Shown one piece after another: positions 7,992 to 40,514 of a DNA stretch of 57,651 bases. The stretch is taken from NCBI GenBank assembly GCA_937901395.1, contig CALCDB010000017.1, positions 1-57,651 of the forward strand, read 5' to 3'. The notes under the pieces were generated by a model. That model did not search any database. It was not told the DNA's origin and saw only the letters and a program-made list of their open reading frames with translations. Origin of the DNA: an uncultured Verrucomicrobiota bacterium (lineage in GTDB: Bacteria; Verrucomicrobiota; Kiritimatiellia; RFP12; UBA1067). Every line of letters starts with the position of its first letter. Within the stretch, counting starts at the first letter, position 1. A program made the translations under genes and the position numbers.

Positions 7992-8097
7992 GGAGACACT
8001 TGGCCTTTTTGATACCGACACATTAGGCGGACTATAGGGACACTTTGCCTTTTTGATACCGACATATCGGCCGGACTATAGGGACACTTTGGGTCGG
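7992..8097. repeat. ~44-45-bp head-to-tail tandem repeat, 2.4 copies
   Basis: Copy 1 at 7992-8036: GGAGACACTTGGCCTTTTTGATACCGACACATTAGGCGGACTATA. Copy 2 at 8037-8080: GGGACACTTTGCCTTTTTGATACCGACATATCGGCCGGACTATA. Partial copy 3 at 8081-8097: GGGACACTTTGGGTCGG. Confidence 0.9.
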
Positions 8098-8289
8098 CAA
8101 CCCCGAGAGATTGGCATGAGGGCTCAGAGGGGTTAAGATATTGACAGGATTAACAGGATTTACATGATTGGAGAGGTGAATGTGGAGATATTGACAGATT
8201 GCTTTTTGGTATAGTGATATTGCCAAACCCCAAAGAAGACAATAGAAACTGGTAATTGGGGAAAGTAATTGCGGGAATGGCAGTTAAAA

Positions 8290-8298
8290 TGATATAAT
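8290..8298 (+). promoter_or_regulatory. extended -10 element TGATATAAT
   Basis: Lies 7 nt before ATG 8306, with no SD. Confidence 0.55.
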
Positions 8299-8305
8299 AT
8301 ACACG

Positions 8306-10024
8306 ATGAATATGACGAGCGATGATTTTGAGTTTGCTGTTTTAGCAAATATGGTCGACTACCCCGACAAAGCATTTACGGGGATTCGAGACATTGGTAT
8401 AGACGAAAGTTATTTTCATAACCCTGTCTATGTTAGCGCTTTCACCGAATTGATGCAAATTAGTGAAGAACCTGATAGAGATACGCGACGGAAAAAACTT
8501 TCTTCTGTTTTGCGTGATAAGTTCAACCCAGACGAGTTTCGTGATCGTTTCGCCTCGTTCGTCGCTAATCCTGCTAAGGTCAACTATTATCTGTGTGGCT
8601 TAGCCGAACAGGCAATTCGATACAATTGCAAAAAATCCATCAGCGAGGTGTTTAACAACGCATCACTGCAGAGCGACATGATTCCAGAATATGTCGCCAG
8701 TATCACCTCGGAGATGAATGCCCGACTCGATGCACTTAAGGCGTTTCGCAAATTGCCCGTCGAAAGCGACAAGAACGAAATTGACGGCACTAAGCCAATT
8801 CCCGAAGAGTTGCTTAACGCCCCTGGATTCATTGACGAGTACATAAAGTTCACCATGCGCACCGCTCAACGCCCCAATCGTGTGCTCGCATTCTCAGGCG
8901 CGCTTGCTATACTCTCAATTCTTACTGCTCGTAAGTATCAAAGTGTTCGTAAGGCAACGCCCAATCTCTATATCGTGGCGCTTGCTGAATCTGGGGTTGG
9001 CAAAGCTCATGCTCGCCATATCAACAAATCAATCGCTTCCGCTTGTAATATGTGCGATGCGATCGCTGATCGTATTGGCTCGGGGGAAGGACTTGAAGAT
9101 GCGCTTCGGCGCACACCAGCGATGCTCTTTCAAATTGATGAATTTGATACCTTGCTTAACGCAATGAAAAGTCCAAGCAACATCAGCGAGGGAATTTATA
9201 CCTATATTCTTAATCTATTTTCCGAAGCGCGTGAAGTTCATCACATTCGCAAGAAAGCAATGAGTGGCGAGCGAACAACCGCTCCAGACAAAATATATGC
9301 GCCCTCGGTTACAATCTACGCTACCGCTACCCCACAGCATTTCTACGACTCCCTTTCAAAGCGGGCGTTAGACAATGGTTTTATTGCCCGTTTGTTGATT
9401 TTCGAAGTCGGTAAGCGCGGAAAAATTGGCGACCTTACGGCAAGTGAAACTCTGCCATCTGAAATTTTGGAGCCGGCGCGAGTTTTCACCAATCGGCTTT
9501 GCCCCATTGACCAAATGCCAAATCCATACGTTGTGCCAGACGATGTCGGAGCCGATGGACGCGCTAAGGCCATTTCAGATGAAGCCGATGCGCTTTACGA
9601 TAAAAGCTGTGAACAACACGATGGCGCAGGTTTGGCGATATGGAATCGTGGGTTTGAGATGACGGATAAGCTTGCGCTTCTCTATGCATTGAGCGAAAAT
9701 CCTGCAATGCCGAAAATTACCGCAAAGGGACTTGATTGGGCGTGGAAAATTGTGCGCTACTGTTTTGAGCGTATGCTCGCGATGTCAAAGGAATACGTCT
9801 CAGCCGACCAGTATGATGCCGACGCAAATGCGGTATTGCGCAAGATTCGCTCTTATGGTGCAAAAGGCGTAATGCACAGCGAGATTTCGAGAGTATTGGG
9901 CTACACCTCAAAACGAATGGAATCTGCCATTAAGACGCTAATTGACCGTGAGTCGATTATTGTAACCTCGGGCAATCGAAATGCGAAAATTTATCGCATC
10001 AAGCAGAAAGGTAAGTTGAAATGA
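8306..10024 (+). CDS. replicative helicase-like protein: DnaB N-terminal-like domain + DUF3987-type P-loop NTPase + C-terminal wHTH-like tail
   Basis: N-terminus DFEFAVLANMV..YFHNPVYVSAFTELM resembles the DnaB N-domain. Walker A-like LAESGVGKAHA, Walker B-like LFQIDEFD, and NGFIARLLIFEV are present. The layout is typical of YfjI/P4-type mobile-element helicases. Confidence 0.65.
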   Translation: MNMTSDDFEFAVLANMVDYPDKAFTGIRDIGIDESYFHNPVYVSAFTELMQISEEPDRDTRRKKLSSVLRDKFNPDEFRDRFASFVANPAKVNYYLCGLAEQAIRYNCKKSISEVFNNASLQSDMIPEYVASITSEMNARLDALKAFRKLPVESDKNEIDGTKPIPEELLNAPGFIDEYIKFTMRTAQRPNRVLAFSGALAILSILTARKYQSVRKATPNLYIVALAESGVGKAHARHINKSIASACNMCDAIADRIGSGEGLEDALRRTPAMLFQIDEFDTLLNAMKSPSNISEGIYTYILNLFSEAREVHHIRKKAMSGERTTAPDKIYAPSVTIYATATPQHFYDSLSKRALDNGFIARLLIFEVGKRGKIGDLTASETLPSEILEPARVFTNRLCPIDQMPNPYVVPDDVGADGRAKAISDEADALYDKSCEQHDGAGLAIWNRGFEMTDKLALLYALSENPAMPKITAKGLDWAWKIVRYCFERMLAMSKEYVSADQYDADANAVLRKIRSYGAKGVMHSEISRVLGYTSKRMESAIKTLIDRESIIVTSGNRNAKIYRIKQKGKLK

Positions 10025-10659
10025 AAAACTATTTGGACTACGACGAAGACGCTGAACACGACAAGGCTCAACAAGCCCGCCACAAGGAATTCGTGGCTGG
10101 GTTAAGAAAGAGCATGAGTTTTGGACAGGATGACCCCAAGGAAATCATTCAGCGAGCGATGAAATTCTTACAAGATTGCACGACCGAACTCGATGAGGGC
10201 AAGGTGTCGACACTTGAATTTACAACTTGGGATACGATAAAATACATCCTTTCTTTTGATATGGAATACACCTATGCTGGCTTCGATAAGGATCAATGCC
10301 TTGGTGGAGATAAGCCAAAATTGTGCATTTTCGGGGCGAGTGATATGTTGAGCGAATCAGCCGATCAAGAGCGACTACGCAAATTGCTTAAAGCGTATCT
10401 TACCGCAGGGGCGGCACTATCAAGAAAAGCATCGTCTTCTGCCTATGAAGAGTGGATTAAGCTATTAATGGAACTTGAATTCACTGGTAGACACGGAATC
10501 TGCCAGTTTTCGCGAAAAGATGACGCAAATAAGTTCTTTAATCGTATGCGCGTTGCCTTAAAGCGTACTTGGGCGGATAACGAGGTTTATCAGCATATTT
10601 TGATTACAAGTAAACCCCCTACCCCCACACGGAAAAAGGGCCAAAAAAACGCGGTGTGA
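10021..10659 (+). CDS. hypothetical protein (island 1)
   Basis: 212-aa ORF with ATGA overlap to the helicase gene. No recognisable motifs. Confidence 0.55.
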   Translation: MKNYLDYDEDAEHDKAQQARHKEFVAGLRKSMSFGQDDPKEIIQRAMKFLQDCTTELDEGKVSTLEFTTWDTIKYILSFDMEYTYAGFDKDQCLGGDKPKLCIFGASDMLSESADQERLRKLLKAYLTAGAALSRKASSSAYEEWIKLLMELEFTGRHGICQFSRKDDANKFFNRMRVALKRTWADNEVYQHILITSKPPTPTRKKGQKNAV

Positions 10660-10666
10660 GGGGGGT

Positions 10667-10872
10667 GTACTTGTGGTCAAGGTAAAAAAGGTAGATAATT
10701 AATAATATATTTATTTATTATTACTATTATCATCAAATAACGCACTTTCTTGACCACAAGTTAATAGCAAGTAGATAACAAGTAGACCACAAGTAGCACT
10801 TGTTATCAAGCCCCATTTTTCGTCTAAAACCCCAATTTTCACTTGTGGTCTACTTGTGGTCTACTTGTGGTC
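10667..10872. other. origin-of-replication-like region: ACTTGTGGTC iterons flanking an AT-rich tract
   Basis: ACTTGTGGTC at 10669-10678. AT-rich tract at ~10693-10740. Inverted copies at 10750-10761 and 10783-10795. Three direct copies at exact 11-bp spacing (10841-10850, 10852-10861, 10863-10872). Confidence 0.6.
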
Positions 10873-11001
10873 ATTTTGCAAGATGTTTTGGTGTCTCAGA
10901 AGTAACATTTTTACTTTTAACCATTTGCAAAAAGTTTATCACGCAAAATTTACCTATAAAGAAAATTTGCGCAGAGATGTGGACACTACACGCCAATTTT
11001 T

Positions 11002-11010
11002 TGGTATAAT
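11002..11010 (+). promoter_or_regulatory. extended -10 element TGGTATAAT (island cassette copy 1)
   Basis: Lies 6 nt before ATG 11017. Part of a ~45-bp sequence repeated at 40458-40502. Confidence 0.55.
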
Positions 11011-11016
11011 ATAGCC

Positions 11017-11085
11017 ATGTCGTATGAAGAAGCGATAAAGAAAAATGAGTTATATTCCTCCATATACAATAAGCGAATATTATGA
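11017..11085 (+). CDS. putative leaderless mini-ORF (22 aa, MSYEEAIKKNELYSSIYNKRIL)
   Basis: ATG lies 6 nt after the -10 box. The first 9 codons are near-identical to the mini-ORF at 40476. Coding status unproven. Confidence 0.3.
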   Translation: MSYEEAIKKNELYSSIYNKRIL

Positions 11086-11157
11086 TACGATGAGAGCGTT
11101 TGATTGATGAGAAAAGGTATTGAATGAAGATGCTTGTGATAGTCGAAAGGGAATAAG

Positions 11158-11472
11158 ATGAGCATAGCGGTGTGTAAAAGCTGTGGATTGCAATTCTTCG
11201 TGGAAAATCATCCGTTGCCACGTGTTGAGCAATGTCCTCAATGTGGAGAAGCGGTGCTGCTGTCTAAAGACGAACATAGAGATAATGACGAGTCTTCATT
11301 CTGGCTCGGTGCACTTTTTGGAGGGTGGGGTGTGTTGTTTTCCGGTGCTGTAAAGGGCAAATCAGGAATCGATCATGCTCTTGGCGGCGTCTTTGTCGTG
11401 TGGTTGGGCCGTATTCTCGTAATGGCCATCTTGTTTCTGGTTGTTTTAATTGCCTTGTGGCTAAAGTTCTGA
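11158..11472 (+). CDS. small zinc-ribbon membrane protein
   Basis: CKSCG..x19..CPQCG zinc ribbon followed by two hydrophobic helices, with a GGGAA-type SD. Same architecture as 45104..45412. Confidence 0.6.
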   Translation: MSIAVCKSCGLQFFVENHPLPRVEQCPQCGEAVLLSKDEHRDNDESSFWLGALFGGWGVLFSGAVKGKSGIDHALGGVFVVWLGRILVMAILFLVVLIALWLKF

Positions 11473-11523
11473 TGACGAAAAGGAAAAAAGATGGAATGGC
11501 CCCGAAATAAGCGTTAAGATCCT

Positions 11524-11982
11524 ATGAAATGCGTATTCTCTCTACTGCTGATAGTCACCATTGGTTGTTGCTCGTCAACGGCTCTAGAACAGGGTTTGTG
11601 CAAAGGTGATAATTCGGCTATCAAATATTCCATTGGACAATTAGATGGTGTTATTGACGCAAAATCCGTCGATGAGATTTTAGCGATTTTAGGCCCACCT
11701 TCATATATCATTGGAAGTGGTATTGTACGGTACATATGGGCTTTTGATAATGGTGAGCGTTTGCAAGTGAATTGGCCTTATAGTAATGGAAGATGGCCAG
11801 CTGCAAATGTAATTCCTGCTTGGCATATCGATCCTCCAGTAATATCGCTAAAATCTAATGATAATAGTGTTGCAATTGTTAAAATCAATCATAAGCGACC
11901 AAATTTTACATATGTTGTTGAGTCTGATTCACCTTTTGTTGATGTTGAAGGCTGTTTGTTGCGGATAAAAGGGCACTTCTAG
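11524..11982 (+). CDS. putative lipoprotein (island 1)
   Basis: N-terminus MKCVFSLLLIVTIGCCSS is a signal peptide with a lipobox-like IGC. No other motifs. Confidence 0.55.
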   Translation: MKCVFSLLLIVTIGCCSSTALEQGLCKGDNSAIKYSIGQLDGVIDAKSVDEILAILGPPSYIIGSGIVRYIWAFDNGERLQVNWPYSNGRWPAANVIPAWHIDPPVISLKSNDNSVAIVKINHKRPNFTYVVESDSPFVDVEGCLLRIKGHF

Positions 11983-12317
11983 AATCTGGAGTCTCTACAA
12001 CAAATATTAACTGTAGACTTTGGGTGATTAGAGATGTTGATCCTTATCCAAAATGTTTCGATGTCAGAAACATACTTATAGATATTTCAGGCGATTTTGG
12101 AGACACATCCCCGAAATAACTAGAAAAAGTGAAGCCAAGATGAATACAATTGTAAGAATATTGCTTTTTGCTGGTTTGATGAATTTATTCGGGAAAAGGA
12201 GTGAAAAGTCTGTATGGTAAAGAAGGGTGTCCCCAATGGGATGTTGGAGAGGAGGAGGTTGAATTTGAAAAGATTGTGCAAGGGATGGAAAAGTTTTCAG
12301 ATTCGCGCAATGAATTA

Positions 12318-12326
12318 TGATATAAT
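12318..12326 (+). promoter_or_regulatory. extended -10 element TGATATAAT
   Basis: Lies 8 nt before ATG 12335. The TTG at 12332 listed in the ORF track is too close to the -10 box. Confidence 0.55.
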
Positions 12327-12334
12327 ATCGCTTG

Positions 12335-13411
12335 ATGACGTATGATGATTTGAGTTTAAGCGAGTTTCGTGGTTACTTTCAAGCGAAGGAGCCAGGAAAG
12401 CGCGAACGGGCGTTCGCGTGGTCTACGGCCATTGGATTACAAGATGTTGACGGACTTTCCGTCTCTCGGTATTTGGTTGAGACAGCTAAGGACCATATTG
12501 AGGGACGAATTACTCAATCCCAGGCGCGACGACGCATACACGACTATTACGAGGCGAAGAGCGAACAGCGTGCGCCAAATCTCGAGTTGCTTGAACCAGA
12601 TAAGGTGGCGGAGCGAATTGCAGCTGTCATCAATGATGGAGGGTTTGCCTTTACTCCGGAATATTTCATTTCACTCCACGCCAAATTATTCCGTGGAGTC
12701 TTATCATCGGCAGGGAAACTGCGGACACACAACATCCGCAAGCATGAGTGGGTATTGAAGAATGATTCGGTTATTTATGGCGACAAGGCGACGCTGAAGG
12801 CCTCGTTAGTGAGGAACTTCGCGGATGAACGTGAATACGATTACGGCGGTAAGTCGTTGGCAGAGATCATTCCGCATTTTACGCGCTTTATCGCACAGGT
12901 TTGGCAGGTGCATCCTTTCGGTGAAGGCAATACGCGCACGACTGCGGTCTTTGCCATCAAGTATCTGTGTGCACTTGGTTATCGCGTTGCAATCGACATA
13001 TTTCGAGATAACTCTTGGTATTTTCGTAATGCGCTTGTCAGAGCCAATTATGCCGATTATGCGCGGGGGGTGAAGCGAGATTGGGGGTATCTTGAATTGT
13101 TTTTCCGCAACTTGCTTTTGGGCGAAAAGAATGAGCTTAAGAACCGCTATTTGCTAATTGGCTTCAATCGTCCGAAGGAAGATGGCAAAGGTTGTCAGAA
13201 AAAGGTTGTCAGAAAAGGTTGTCAGAAAACGGTTGAACGCTTATTCGGTTTGCTTAAGGCACGTCCGCATTTGACGCAAATTGATATGGCTACGGCATTG
13301 GGGATTTCGCGTCAAGCGGTGCAGAAGCATCTCGCCAACTTGAAGGCCGCAGGGCGTATCCGCCGTGTGGGCCCCGACAAGGGTGGTCATTGGGAGACGA
13401 GGGTAATTTGA
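12335..13411 (+). CDS. Fic/DOC family protein with C-terminal winged-HTH
   Basis: Fic motif variant HPFGEGNTRTTAVF. C-terminal LTQIDMATALGISRQAVQKHLANLKAAGRIRRVG is HTH-like. Confidence 0.85.
   Translation: MTYDDLSLSEFRGYFQAKEPGKRERAFAWSTAIGLQDVDGLSVSRYLVETAKDHIEGRITQSQARRRIHDYYEAKSEQRAPNLELLEPDKVAERIAAVINDGGFAFTPEYFISLHAKLFRGVLSSAGKLRTHNIRKHEWVLKNDSVIYGDKATLKASLVRNFADEREYDYGGKSLAEIIPHFTRFIAQVWQVHPFGEGNTRTTAVFAIKYLCALGYRVAIDIFRDNSWYFRNALVRANYADYARGVKRDWGYLELFFRNLLLGEKNELKNRYLLIGFNRPKEDGKGCQKKVVRKGCQKTVERLFGLLKARPHLTQIDMATALGISRQAVQKHLANLKAAGRIRRVGPDKGGHWETRVI
13187..13229 (+). repeat. 3x tandem AAGGTTGTCAGAA repeat with 14- and 13-nt spacing, inside the Fic gene linker
   Basis: Core copies at 13188-13200, 13202-13214 and 13215-13227. 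They are read in different frames (KGCQK / KVVRK / GCQK). Confidence 0.9.
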
Positions 13412-13447
13412 GGGTTGGAATGGGTATGGACGATGTGAGTTAAAATG

Positions 13448-13456
13448 TGGTATAAT
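13448..13456 (+). promoter_or_regulatory. extended -10 element TGGTATAAT
   Basis: TGGTATAATATAGCCATG is identical over 18 nt to the island cassette promoters. Lies 6 nt before ATG 13463. Confidence 0.55.
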
Positions 13457-13462
13457 ATAGCC

Positions 13463-14272
13463 ATGATTACATTGATTATTGCTATTGTAGTTGCGGGGGG
13501 CGTTTTCGCTTCCACGCATTATGTTTTTGATTGGAGTCTCATCTGGAGCATCGTGATGGGAGTCGTCGGATTTGGCGTTTTTCAAGTGCTGATGAGCATC
13601 TTGATTCAACGTCGAGTAAAGGCGGATATGTTGCGAGTTCAGGATATCCTTATGGGCGGGCAAAAACGTTTGCAACAGAAGATGCAACGTTGGCAGATGC
13701 GTCCACCGGGTTCGCTTCAAGCGGCGCAAAAGGAGATTTTCGAAGATACGAAGTTGTTCGTGAAATCGGCATTGGAAGAGACGGAAAAGCTCAGCAAGTA
13801 CAGACTTTGGGTGCCGATGATGGAGAGGCAGATCGCGACGGCGAGGGTGCAGCTTAGTTGGATGATAAAAGATTTCAAGGCGGTTGATAACAACATGAAG
13901 AAGGCGTTGTTATTGGATCCAAGCATGGCGGCGATTAAGATGGCGCGTATGTATATGCTCGATGAGCCGATAGATGCGATTATGAAGGTGTATCACAAGG
14001 GCGTCGCGAGAGTTCGCTACAATGGGAATGTGCTTTTGGCCGCTACGATGAGTTGGATTCAAGTGCATAGAAATGATGCGGATGGCGCATTCAAGACATT
14101 GACGGAGGCGCTTAAGAAGAGCGACAACGCGACATTGAAGCAAAATCACGAGCATCTTATGAATAATCGAGTTGCGCACTTCTCCAATTCGGGCATTGGC
14201 GATCAATGGTATTCGCTATTATTGGAAGAGCCGAAAGTTCATGTGCAGCGTCAGAGGAGCGTTTATCGTTAA
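13463..14272 (+). CDS. membrane protein (two N-terminal TM helices, helical C-terminal domain)
   Basis: The ORF-track start at 13445 lies inside the -10 box, so the next in-frame ATG at 13463 (MITLIIAIVVAGG..) is preferred. Confidence 0.65.
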   Translation: MITLIIAIVVAGGVFASTHYVFDWSLIWSIVMGVVGFGVFQVLMSILIQRRVKADMLRVQDILMGGQKRLQQKMQRWQMRPPGSLQAAQKEIFEDTKLFVKSALEETEKLSKYRLWVPMMERQIATARVQLSWMIKDFKAVDNNMKKALLLDPSMAAIKMARMYMLDEPIDAIMKVYHKGVARVRYNGNVLLAATMSWIQVHRNDADGAFKTLTEALKKSDNATLKQNHEHLMNNRVAHFSNSGIGDQWYSLLLEEPKVHVQRQRSVYR

Positions 14273-15866
14273 GAAAGCCATAGTTTTGGCGGCGGGGTTG
14301 GGGACGAGATTGCGACCACTCACTTGCGCCGTGCCGAAGCCCCTGATGCCAATATGGGGCGAGCAGATGCTCGCGCGAATCGTGAGGATGCTTAGGGAAT
14401 GGGGAGTTGACGATATCGTAGTGAATTGTCATTATCTGCATGAGCAAATCGAGCGGTGGTGCGCGGAAAATGGATGTAAGGCGAGTTACGAGCCGACGAT
14501 TTTAGGTACGGGTGGGGTGCTTAATCCCTTGCGCGATTGGATTAAGGACGAACCATTTTATTTGGTGAATGGCGATATCGTAGTCGAAGGAGCGAAGAGG
14601 TTGGAGCTGCCGGCGGATGATAGCGTAATCGGGTGTTGTTTGGTATCGCAGATGGGGCCGCGCACAATTGAAGTCGAACCCGAATATGGGTATGTGACGA
14701 ATTGGCGAAGCGATGATGCGGGAATGGAAGGAACGTGGACGTATTGCGGGATTGCGGCATTAAAGCCAGCAATCCTTAATTATGTGGAGAGAGAGGGTGA
14801 AGCCAGCATCGTTAGCGCATACACGAAGGCAATGATGGATGGACGATTCATCAAGGCCATCGCTCCAGATGATTTATTATGGGAAGACGCTGGCAGCATT
14901 GAACGTTATATCGAGCTTAATCACGACGACAAGGACAATGCATTCGCGGATATACCAGCGTTGAAGGCGGCTGGCGCGACGGCATCGGTAGAGTTCATTG
15001 GCGCACGAGGAAGCGAGCGGGTGTTCTTCAAGGATGGCGATAAGGTGTTCATCATCTATGACGATGCGAAGCGAAAGGAAAATGCTCGTTATGCGGGGCA
15101 CGCGAGGTGGTTGAAAGCGAAGGGGATTCCGGTTCCATCGGTGATTGCCGAATTGCCGGAATGGAAGACGATAGTAATGGAGAATGCGGGTAGCGAGCGC
15201 AAGTTCTCGCTTGAAGAATATGTCAAGATAGTCGAGGGCTTGGTGAAATTCAACGCATTGGGAGCGGAGAAGGATATGCCTGAACTTGAGCCGCCCTTCG
15301 ATATGAAGATATGGACATGGGAACAGAATCTATTCGCGGAGTATTGCTTGCAGGGCAGATATTTTATGGAGATGCCAAAAGCGGTAAGCGACGAGTTGAA
15401 GAATGTCGCATCGCTGTTGGAGCGTGAACCCAAAGCGCTGGTGCATCGTGATTTTCAATCGACGAATGTGCTATGGAAGAATGGAGATTTTAACTTCATC
15501 GATTTTCAGGGGATGCGATTGGGTCCGGCAGCGTATGATCTGGCTTCGCTCGTATATGATCCATACGTGCGGTTTACGGAAGGCGAGCGGAGGGCGTTGA
15601 TTAAATTATACGCAAGAACCGCGGGGCGCGAAGAGATCGTTAACATTATGCCATACGCGGCGGTTGAGCGTTTGGTGCAGTGTTTGGGAGCATACGGGCG
15701 ATTAGCATCGGTAGGTCAAAATCAATTCGAGAAGTATGTATTGCCGGCATTGGAGAATTTGTTGGATGTAGCGGACAAGGCGAATCTTGATGCGTTAGGC
15801 GGATTAGCCGAAGATTTGATAGCGAAGGAATCGCCGCATCATTGTCACCATCATCACCACGAATGA
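14241..15866 (+). CDS. bifunctional MurU-like nucleotidyltransferase / AmgK-like sugar kinase (peptidoglycan recycling), His-rich C-terminus
   Basis: N-terminal KKAIVLAAGLGTRLRPLT is a nucleotidyltransferase signature. C-terminal LVHRDFQSTNVLW..FIDFQGMRLGPAAYDLASLVYDP is an APH-type kinase as in AmgK. The tail is SPHHCHHHHHE. The start is uncertain (14241 ATG preferred over 14172). Confidence 0.8.
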   Translation: MCSVRGAFIVKKAIVLAAGLGTRLRPLTCAVPKPLMPIWGEQMLARIVRMLREWGVDDIVVNCHYLHEQIERWCAENGCKASYEPTILGTGGVLNPLRDWIKDEPFYLVNGDIVVEGAKRLELPADDSVIGCCLVSQMGPRTIEVEPEYGYVTNWRSDDAGMEGTWTYCGIAALKPAILNYVEREGEASIVSAYTKAMMDGRFIKAIAPDDLLWEDAGSIERYIELNHDDKDNAFADIPALKAAGATASVEFIGARGSERVFFKDGDKVFIIYDDAKRKENARYAGHARWLKAKGIPVPSVIAELPEWKTIVMENAGSERKFSLEEYVKIVEGLVKFNALGAEKDMPELEPPFDMKIWTWEQNLFAEYCLQGRYFMEMPKAVSDELKNVASLLEREPKALVHRDFQSTNVLWKNGDFNFIDFQGMRLGPAAYDLASLVYDPYVRFTEGERRALIKLYARTAGREEIVNIMPYAAVERLVQCLGAYGRLASVGQNQFEKYVLPALENLLDVADKANLDALGGLAEDLIAKESPHHCHHHHHE

Positions 15867-27872: not shown

Positions 27873-27949
27873 TGGTCGGGGCGGCGGGATTTGAACCCAC
27901 GGCCTTCTGCGCCCAAGGCAGACGCGCTACCAGACTGCGCTACACCCCG
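27873..27949 (-). tRNA. tRNA-Pro(UGG): tRNA-Pro (anticodon UGG), CCA encoded
   Basis: Reverse complement reads CGGGGTG TA GCGC AGTCTGGTA GCGC G TCTGC CTTGGGC GCAGA AGGCC GTGGG TTCAAAT CCCGC CGCCCCG A CCA. This folds as a full cloverleaf with a 7-nt anticodon loop holding TGG. Confidence 0.9.
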
Positions 27950-40460: not shown

Positions 40461-40469
40461 TGGTATAAT
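40461..40469 (+). promoter_or_regulatory. extended -10 element TGGTATAAT (island cassette copy 2)
   Basis: Lies 6 nt before ATG 40476. Part of the ~45-bp repeat shared with 11001-11045. Confidence 0.55.
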
Positions 40470-40475
40470 ATAGCC

Positions 40476-40514
40476 ATGTCGTATGAAGATGCAATAAAGA
40501 AAGCGGAGGAATGA
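40476..40514 (+). CDS. putative leaderless mini-ORF (12 aa, MSYEDAIKKAEE) translationally coupled to the next gene
   Basis: Its codons GCG GAG GAA TGA supply a GGAGGA SD and an ATGA overlap with ATG 40511. The peptide start is shared with the mini-ORF at 11017. Confidence 0.3.
   Translation: MSYEDAIKKAEE

Follow-up and report, generated by a model that had tools for sequence, protein, structure and literature searches.

A putative integrase-less replication module in an uncultured Verrucomicrobiota bacterium: a predicted helicase-initiator, its partner gene and iterons around an AT-rich tract

On a chromosomal contig of an uncultured Verrucomicrobiota bacterium, within the 57.6-kb stretch of DNA analysed here (the window), two overlapping genes are followed by a 270-bp block, 10602-10872, in which repeated 10-letter words surround an easily melted AT-rich stretch (Table 1). 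The 572-aa product of the first gene matches the Pfam family PF13148 (DUF3987) with 36 bits against a cut-off of 27. Members of this family are MCM-related replicative helicases of SF6; they carry a wHTH at the C-terminus and are usually linked to a primase (PMC4889955), and one DUF3987 helicase has been characterised as oligomeric and active in the 5'-3' direction in vitro (PMC11724360). The 572-aa protein also matches phrog_3022, a PHROG annotated as DNA primase, over profile positions 283-774 of 788 alone, so that the primase part is missing, and no adjacent primase gene was found near the helicase gene with Pfam and PHROGs. The AF2 model (pLDDT 86) places an N-terminal domain, a linker, the ATPase core and a winged helix in that order. 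Searched with Foldseek, it retrieved AAA+ proteins, MCM2 and DnaB chains, all of them weak matches, and the winged helix has a weak match to DUF7646. A profile of the N-terminal domain aligned with the DnaB N-terminal domains of the same genus over 134 columns (hhalign probability 95.8%, E 7.7e-9). Full-length relatives of ~580-600 aa form a small subfamily, more distant ones of 710-820 aa carrying an N-terminal Prim-Pol domain. These comparisons indicate that a DnaB-type N-terminal domain replaces the primase-polymerase in the 572-aa protein. The helicase looks functional, given the DUF3987 match, the Walker A (AESGVGKA, residues 227-234) and Walker B (DE, 278-279) motifs, in which S229, G232, K233, D278 and E279 are invariant, and a dN/dS of 0.14.

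The second gene (gene 2) starts in an ATGA overlap with the helicase stop codon and is predicted to be translationally coupled to the helicase gene. It evolves with a dN/dS of 0.16-0.24 and encodes a mostly helical 212-aa protein with a conserved lysine-rich C-terminal tail, modelled by AF2 with a pLDDT of 92.7. The model has no fold match in PDB or BFVD; OspC-like helical bundles were considered and rejected, their best Foldseek E of 0.15 being meaningless. No family for the protein was found in Pfam, PHROGs, NCBIfam or PADLOC, and a search of 1.84 billion proteins found just 90 cluster representatives of its own family. Transcription of the pair probably starts without a leader from an extended -10 promoter just upstream of the helicase gene. 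The arrangement TGnTATAAT-N5-7-ATG occurs 47 times in the assembly, which identifies the extended -10 promoter as the usual signal of the host.

Table 1. Features of the two-gene module, its repeat block and its flanks (positions refer to the window)
Feature	Position	Strand	Remarks
Extended -10 promoter TGATATAAT	8290..8305	+	Ends 7 nt before helicase ATG
Predicted 572-aa helicase-initiator gene	8306..10024	+	DnaB-N-like domain, DUF3987/SF6 ATPase and C-terminal winged helix
DnaB-N-like domain, helical	about residues 5-139 to 5-148 (nt 8318-8722 for 5-139)		hhalign, AF2 model
DUF3987/SF6 (MCM-related) ATPase	about residues 165-500		Pfam PF13148
C-terminal winged helix	residues 502-566 (nt 9809-10003)		AF2 model
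212-aa partner gene (gene 2)	10021..10659	+	ATGA overlap with helicase stop
Degenerate inverted iteron GATTACAAGT	10602..10611	-	Inside 3' end of gene 2
Imperfect GC-rich hairpin CCCCCACAC / GTGTGAGGGGG	10622..10664		Spans gene 2 stop codon
Exact iteron ACTTGTGGTC, left flank of AT tract	10669..10678	+	Read from the sequence
AT-rich tract, proposed DNA-unwinding element	10691..10745		Duplex stability; conserved in L023, L024 and L025
Four inverted iterons in 11-bp phase: GACCACAAGT, AATAGCAAGT, GATAACAAGT, GACCACAAGT	10752..10794	-	Outer two exact, inner two degenerate
Degenerate direct iteron ACTTGTTATC	10798..10807	+	10-bp inverted pair with 10774-10783
Three exact direct iterons in 11-bp phase	10841..10872	+	L037 has three direct 11-bp units at the equivalent place
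Conserved spacer, host-type promoter (GTGGACA ... TGGTATAAT) and leaderless ATG 11017	10873..11019	+	Shared with L023 to just past the ATG, then unrelated

A first-pass annotation of this DNA had picked out an origin-like array of repeats, and on re-reading the sequence all of its elements lay where it had placed them. The word ACTTGTGGTC occurs in six exact copies in 10669-10872, on the plus strand at 10669, 10841, 10852 and 10863 and on the minus strand at 10752 and 10785. With at most one mismatch allowed the window holds 8 matches, against a mean of 1.3 in dinucleotide-preserving shuffles (n = 100), none of which reached 8. A repeat search combined with a mismatch scan added four degenerate iterons, at 10602-10611, 10763-10772, 10774-10783 and 10798-10807. 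Thus, besides the three direct iterons said to be spaced 11 bp apart at the right-hand end, all of which are exact, the inverted copies reported across the AT tract prove to be two exact minus-strand words with degenerate inverted units between them, the two degenerate inner copies making 10752-10794 a four-unit array in 11-bp phase. The first exact iteron begins 10 bp past the stop of the two-gene operon. The AT tract has one exact copy (10669) and the degenerate copy inside gene 2 on its left and eight copies on its right, and the iterons nearest to it on the two sides have opposite orientation. No second cluster of ACTTGTGGTC was found within the 57.6-kb window. A search for the iteron elsewhere in the genome, which the first-pass annotation had proposed, turned up one further exact copy in the 1.55-Mb assembly (C39:4705), where about three would be expected by chance for a random 10-mer, and ACTTGTGGTC is therefore no dispersed repeat.

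The tract between the iterons had been described as very AT-rich, and 10691-10740 is indeed 90% A+T. Of all 50-bp duplexes in the window this one has the lowest stability (-46.7 kcal/mol; mean -70.7, standard deviation 5.0), and only three loci in the whole assembly, this one included, are as unstable. The imperfect hairpin to its left is present, although not after the 212-aa gene as had been thought, since the stop codon (10657-10659) sits in its 3' arm. Its folding energy is no better than that of shuffles (z = -1.3), and the hairpin region (10605-10680) was rejected as a terminator on that ground and for want of a T-run. The arms CCCCCACAC/GTGTGGGGG recur in L037, a relative whose helicase is 42% identical.

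Beyond the block, variable genes begin at the spacer and promoter of 10873..11019, a segment shared with the metagenome contig L023; two other close relatives, L024 and L025, are on contigs that end before the promoter. The 18-mer TGGTATAATATAGCCATG (11002, 13448) was considered as a cassette boundary and rejected, because it is a host consensus leaderless promoter with four occurrences in the assembly among the 47 similar sites. Downstream of the block in the window lies a gene for a Fic-wHTH protein that matches the PADLOC candidate PDC-S72 (E 1e-110) and is a candidate phage-defence gene. At this place L023 has genes for a YhcG-like protein and two DNA methylases, together with genes whose products give faint matches to AAA_5 and weak ones of the LlaJI type. 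In L024 a gene for an MmeI-type enzyme is found on the upstream side of the helicase gene. On the other side, host genes abut the helicase promoter, a FadL-type gene here and a class-I tRNA synthetase gene and fmt in relatives. Integrase, excisionase and packaging genes are absent from the vicinity of the module in the window, a finding counted against the origin reading developed below; likewise no integrase was found in L037-L041, where host housekeeping genes abut the helicase promoter, and in none of the relatives inspected does a recombinase adjoin the module. L041 has one transposase, upstream of the helicase gene. A tRNA-Pro gene at 27873 was rejected as an attachment site, its neighbours being glycosyltransferase genes with no integrase. 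In a search for an empty site the FadL homologues of sister species were not syntenic with the locus, and a search of a plasmid collection gave one weak match and no others.

The same arrangement recurs in sister genomes and metagenome contigs in which the helicase is 34-44% identical and is always followed by a gene of ~210-230 aa. Homologues of gene 2 that could be aligned directly follow the helicase gene in L009, L010, L011 and L024, and L037-L039 have a gene of its size in its place. In all relatives inspected where the sequence continues, an iteron block lies directly 3' of the gene pair, each with an iteron sequence of its own, and in those with complete downstream DNA the iterons surround an AT-rich tract. 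The order of elements in L037, built on the word TTGTGCAAT, is the same as in the window: a hairpin, one direct unit and an AT tract, then four inverted units at 11 bp, a spacer of ~35 bp and three direct units at 11 bp. More distant modules use the words ATCCAGATTCGCA (L009, helicase 37% identical; immediately 3' of gene 2, in both orientations around an AT tract), CCAAGTTCC (L010, 36%; both orientations, the contig ending close to the repeats) and TTTGCGTACTTGGATTT (L011, 34%; both orientations, after gene 2). L010 is a 4-kb contig and showed no terminal overlap that would point to circularity. An architecture that is kept while its sequence varies freely is what would be predicted for an initiator-specific site.

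The wider family was drawn from 263 IMG/VR stretches that encode relatives of helicase residues 150-570, of which 80 loci, with helicases that carry a PrimPol domain, were kept; over these residues the PrimPol-DUF3987 relatives are 35-38% identical to the 572-aa protein. None of the 80 loci has a gene of the 212-aa family. Repeats are nevertheless found there: on 23 of 64 PrimPol-DUF3987 contigs the 480 bp that span and follow the helicase stop contain one 9-mer at least four times, a count reached by no control window of these 23 contigs. An AT tract equivalent to that of the window was found in L037, L009 and L076, lying in the last of these between inverted iterons.

The most informative comparison is with the near relatives, the metagenome contigs L023, L024 and L025, across which gene 2 identities are 98%, ~90% and 81%. 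When their blocks are aligned with that of the window, the hairpin, AT tract and spacers are conserved and all ten repeat positions change together. L025 is a 98-99% identical copy; it shares the iteron type ACTTGTGGTC, with one base different in the last copy, and its helicase is 100% identical over the C-terminal residues compared. The iteron type is ACTTGCAAY in L023 and AACTGCWRT in L024. Between the window and L023 the iterons differ at 4-5 of their 10 bases, and the iteron columns are 68% identical against 83% for the other columns (p = 0.0015). Even at the degenerate site inside gene 2 (10602..10611 in the window) L023 has GATTGCAAGT, one of its own iteron variants. The helicases diverge over the same comparisons at one end: against L023, residues 446-519 are 92% identical and residues 520-566 53% (Fisher p = 1.4e-6), and against L024 the figures are 81% and 55% (p = 2e-4). 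In L023, dS climbs from 0.22 to 2.19 at the winged helix, which indicates that this domain was exchanged by recombination, while gene 2, lying between the winged helix and the repeats, has a dS of 0.26 and is ~89-90% identical, with scattered changes and a differing tail. The iterons thus differ to match the winged helix although the intervening DNA does not, which argues for a functional pairing and cannot be put down to linkage alone; a concerted switch of this kind is what an initiator and its origin would predict. The N-terminal domain of the helicase also diverges in L024 (55% identity), so that the winged helix is not the sole candidate for the specificity determinant, and this was counted against the origin reading. 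What the sequences show directly is how the block is built, which domains are homologous, that the architecture is conserved and that iterons and winged helix co-vary.

Collectively these results suggest, with a probability of about 0.78, that a small two-gene replicon module has its replication origin at 10602-10872 and that the winged helix of the helicase reads this origin. The first-pass annotation had recognised in the block the textbook layout of theta-type plasmid and phage origins. Its origin reading gains support from the conserved architecture and the co-variation; the RepA/DnaA-dependent theta type does not stand, since no Rep-type initiator was matched by Pfam, PHROGs or NCBIfam and no DnaA box (TTATCCACA) is present within one mismatch in 10590-11020. 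The layout appears instead to be that of the origins of self-loading helicase-initiators of the SaPI/PICI/P4 type. The 572-aa protein would then serve as both initiator and replicative helicase, its C-terminal winged helix reading the 10-bp iterons. The 11-bp phasing would set successive sites on one face of the duplex, and the opposite orientations of the sites across the AT tract would let helicase rings assemble in opposing directions and open the duplex within the tract. Priming would probably be left to the host DnaG, recruited via the DnaB-N-like domain, since there is no primase domain and the N-terminal domain is homologous to the primase-binding domain of DnaB. The co-translated 212-aa protein would be an obligatory partner, perhaps in loading or control. 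It is by comparison with known systems that we infer DNA binding, melting, DnaG recruitment and replication by the module.

An origin could also operate with a different division of labour, in which the 212-aa protein is the specific iteron-binding initiator and recruits the helicase, as in O/P-like or Rep-plus-helicase arrangements. Gene 2 adjoins the repeats, and the first degenerate copy lies within it. Wherever this helicase subfamily was found, a gene of such size and position comes with it; the 80 viral loci with PrimPol helicases lack one. The conserved lysine-rich tail of the protein differs between the window and L023. We nevertheless regard this arrangement as decidedly unlikely. Across iterons that differ at 4-5 of 10 positions the protein remains 89% identical with scattered changes, no DNA-binding fold can be recognised in its model, which matches nothing in PDB or BFVD, and in the PrimPol-DUF3987 relatives, which lack the 212-aa protein, iteron blocks follow the helicase gene all the same.

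The preferred reading, an origin recognised by the helicase itself, has its closest parallel in the SaPIs. SaPI Reps are helicases that load themselves and also act as initiators; with a C-terminal WHD they read iterons that lie just 3' of rep around an AT-rich centre (PMC9371898), and the Rep2/SaPIbov1 Rep is of the SF6 type (PMC9371898; bioRxiv 10.64898/2026.10.17.759575). A SaPI-type origin has a central AT-rich region with at least two iterons per side in opposite directions (PMC9371898). The module shares with these systems a helicase that doubles as initiator through a C-terminal winged helix (predicted here), iterons in both orientations 3' of the replication gene around an AT-rich centre, an iteron sequence specific to each element, and the lack of a known separate loader. 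It differs in that the SaPI iterons are 5-6 nt long whereas those of the module are 10 bp at 11-bp phase, in that the 212-aa gene lies between the helicase gene and the origin, and in that a DnaB-N-like domain stands in place of a primase gene. Integrase, regulators and packaging genes are lacking, and the host is an uncultured bacterium of Gram-negative type. The module is also asymmetric, as one iteron and one degenerate copy stand left of the AT tract against eight on its right. This asymmetry was counted against the origin reading, as was the 5'-3' polarity of the characterised DUF3987 helicase, opposite to that of the SaPI Reps, on account of which details of loading may differ. When all PDB chain sequences, presumably with the solved SaPI Reps of PMC9371898 among them, were searched with a profile of 22 subfamily members, no helicase came up at E <= 1. 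The module would thus work like a SaPI-type self-loading helicase origin and yet appears to fall outside the SaPI Rep families and the satellite classes, since a sequence match, an integrase and a primase are all lacking.

Other systems share single features with the module. The alpha protein of P4 combines helicase activity with C-terminal origin binding to short repeated words, a combination predicted here too; alpha, a member of another helicase family, includes a primase domain, and P4 needs ori and crr several kb apart, whereas the module has one compact repeat block and no second cluster in the window. In iteron theta plasmids DnaA/DnaC load the host DnaB, and the iterons exceed in length the 10-bp units at 11-bp phase of the module. 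These plasmids (pPS10, RK2, F; PMC4980987) likewise have repeated initiator sites beside an AT-rich unwinding element, but the module has neither a Rep/WH1-WH2 initiator nor a DnaA box within one mismatch. The PrimPol-PriCT-DUF3987 modules (AgaPP/AgaPH, PMC11724360; phage helicases, PMC4889955) have the same helicase family with a small C-terminal winged helix and often an iteron block directly after the gene; they differ in having a primase-polymerase where the 572-aa protein has a DnaB-N-like domain, and the partner gene is restricted to the subfamily of the latter. No description of the origins of these modules was found in the literature consulted. The PICI/PICMI satellites (PMC10803314) are likewise small chromosomal islands with a DUF3987-type replication gene, but their int, alpA and PICMI fis-site are absent here and in all relatives inspected.

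Whether such a module is still alive bears on a further alternative, that the block is a silent relic of a plasmid or satellite origin, or a set of arm sites for recombination or attachment. The module is chromosomal and has no integrase, two inner iterons are degenerate, and the first small ORF after the promoter, from 11017, is cut to 22 codons in the window and continues past that point in L023. This alternative is very improbable nonetheless: both genes are intact and under purifying selection (dN/dS 0.14-0.24), six iterons are exact, and the 98-99% identical copy in L025 has the same iterons bar one base in the last copy. Purifying selection together with exact repeats makes a dead relic unlikely, the architecture is conserved in L037 with a helicase just 42% identical, and no recombinase lies beside the module in the relatives inspected, where the one transposase is that upstream of the L041 helicase gene. 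It is scarcely credible that the repeats are instead a centromere-like partition site, such as the two sets of five iterons in parC of plasmid R1 (PMC2241845), or a transcriptional operator array. Arrays phased by 11 bp on one face of the helix would suit either, a promoter for the downstream genes lies ~130 bp 3' of the repeats, and origin iterons are often autoregulatory too, which leaves room for a second role. But the module lacks ParA, ParM and TubZ-type genes and any RHH/HTH centromere-binding protein (genes for partition NTPases and centromere-binding proteins being absent from 8000-14300), and the repeats overlap neither promoter, bracket the most meltable tract of the window and co-vary with a domain of the helicase.

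Phage satellites of the PICI/PICMI kind often carry defence genes. A broader scenario, tentative and on the unlikely side, is that these modules are chromosome-resident, integrase-less cassettes that do not leave the chromosome as plasmids and that fire in place when triggered, for instance by phage attack. Firing would over-replicate the variable genes beside them (the PDC-S72-type Fic gene here; methylases and a restriction-enzyme-like gene in the near relative), and the resulting DNA could feed transducing particles. The DnaB-N-like domain would hijack the host DnaG, the 212-aa protein would be a new co-factor or switch of the helicase, and recombination of winged helix and iterons would keep co-resident cassettes orthogonal.

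An origin recognised by its own helicase would be of a known kind, and what is undescribed here is an integrase-less variant beside a candidate phage-defence gene. The near relatives provide a natural series of close helicase/origin pairs, with three iteron types on one backbone. Because the change is concentrated in a winged helix of ~50 residues, the recognition code of MCM-like self-loading helicases could be tested by domain swaps, although one of the two relatives in the series differs in the N-terminal domain as well. The exchange of a primase-polymerase for a DnaB-type N-terminal domain leads to a prediction of how a mobile helicase could borrow the primase of its host. A rare and confidently modelled 212-aa protein, for which the searched libraries hold no fold match, would be tied to replication initiation. 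The module would also strengthen the view that defence-type genes move together with small replication modules that lack an integrase.

Synonymous divergence between the helicase gene and its counterpart in the near relative L023, a metagenome contig, rises tenfold, from 0.22 to 2.19, exactly where the part coding for the winged helix begins (L023 2-385 compared with window 9641-10021). The jump marks a recombination breakpoint lying inside the helicase gene itself. At the other end of the module, the first open reading frame after the conserved promoter is stopped after 22 codons in the window, and in L023 the frame that opens at the equivalent of the 11017 start extends past that point. Exchange of the downstream genes appears to have taken place immediately beyond this start. 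Further 3′ of the origin, the window encodes a Fic-wHTH protein whose match to PDC-S72, a candidate defence family in PADLOC, has an E of 1e-110; there is also a weak match to SoFic. The Fic-wHTH gene contains 13/14-nt tandem repeats at 13187-13235. Genes of restriction-modification type adjoin the module in the near relatives L023 and L024 (see table).

Upstream of the helicase promoter, the two 44-bp tandem units do not appear to belong to the conserved module, because the corresponding intergenic regions of L024 and of the distant relatives L037 and L039 span only ~80-180 bp and leave no room for such an array. Past the iteron block, the distant relatives L037, L011 and L009 have a second array with a 22-24-bp period, unrelated to the iterons and exemplified by CCTACGGGTAAGAGCGTCAGCCC, of which L011 has at least five copies. 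The window contains no clear counterpart of this periodic array, the sole resemblance being TTTGCAAGATGTTT / TTTGCAAAAAGTTT at 10875 and 10924, 49 bp apart. Among the IMG/VR loci L043-L122, many PrimPol-DUF3987 genes on viral contigs have a 9-mer repeated 4-10 times after them. The 9-mer is often GGTGAAAGA or GTGAAGGAA, and in L076 the copies enclose an AT tract.

Coordinates of features in the window, in the assembly and in related loci
Feature	Location	Remarks
Two 44-bp tandem units	window 7995-8082	89% identical; between FadL-type gene and helicase promoter
Copies of TGGTATAATATAGCCATG	window 11002-11019, 13448-13465, 40461-40478; assembly contig C91:3149
First ORF after conserved promoter (11002-11019)	window 11017-11085
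Fic-wHTH protein gene	window 12332-13411
tRNA-Pro(TGG)	window 27873-27949	minus strand
Restriction-modification-type genes	L023 1496-9047	YhcG/DUF1016 protein; two DNA (C5-type) methylases; faint AAA_5 and weak LlaJI-type matches
Restriction-modification-type gene	L024 3-2054	MmeI-type enzyme
Second array, 22-24-bp period	L037 12614-12860; L011 297-457; L009 325-398
9-mer repeats after PrimPol-DUF3987 gene (examples)	L076 11230-11550; L111; L060; L072

Elsewhere in the assembly, 50-bp duplexes as unstable as the origin tract occur only at C112:9219-9282 and C125:2412, on two other contigs. The tRNA-Pro(TGG) gene adjoins genes for family 8 and family 25 glycosyltransferases, with no sign of an integrase or of a second copy of the tRNA end.

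The exact 18-mer TGGTATAATATAGCCATG, present in four copies in the assembly, consists of an extended −10 box with an ATG 6 nt downstream, and a looser form of it, TGnTATAAT-N5-7-ATG, is found at 47 sites. Leaderless mRNAs seem to be in wide use by the host organism, and the replicon module relies on this extended −10/ATG signal too.
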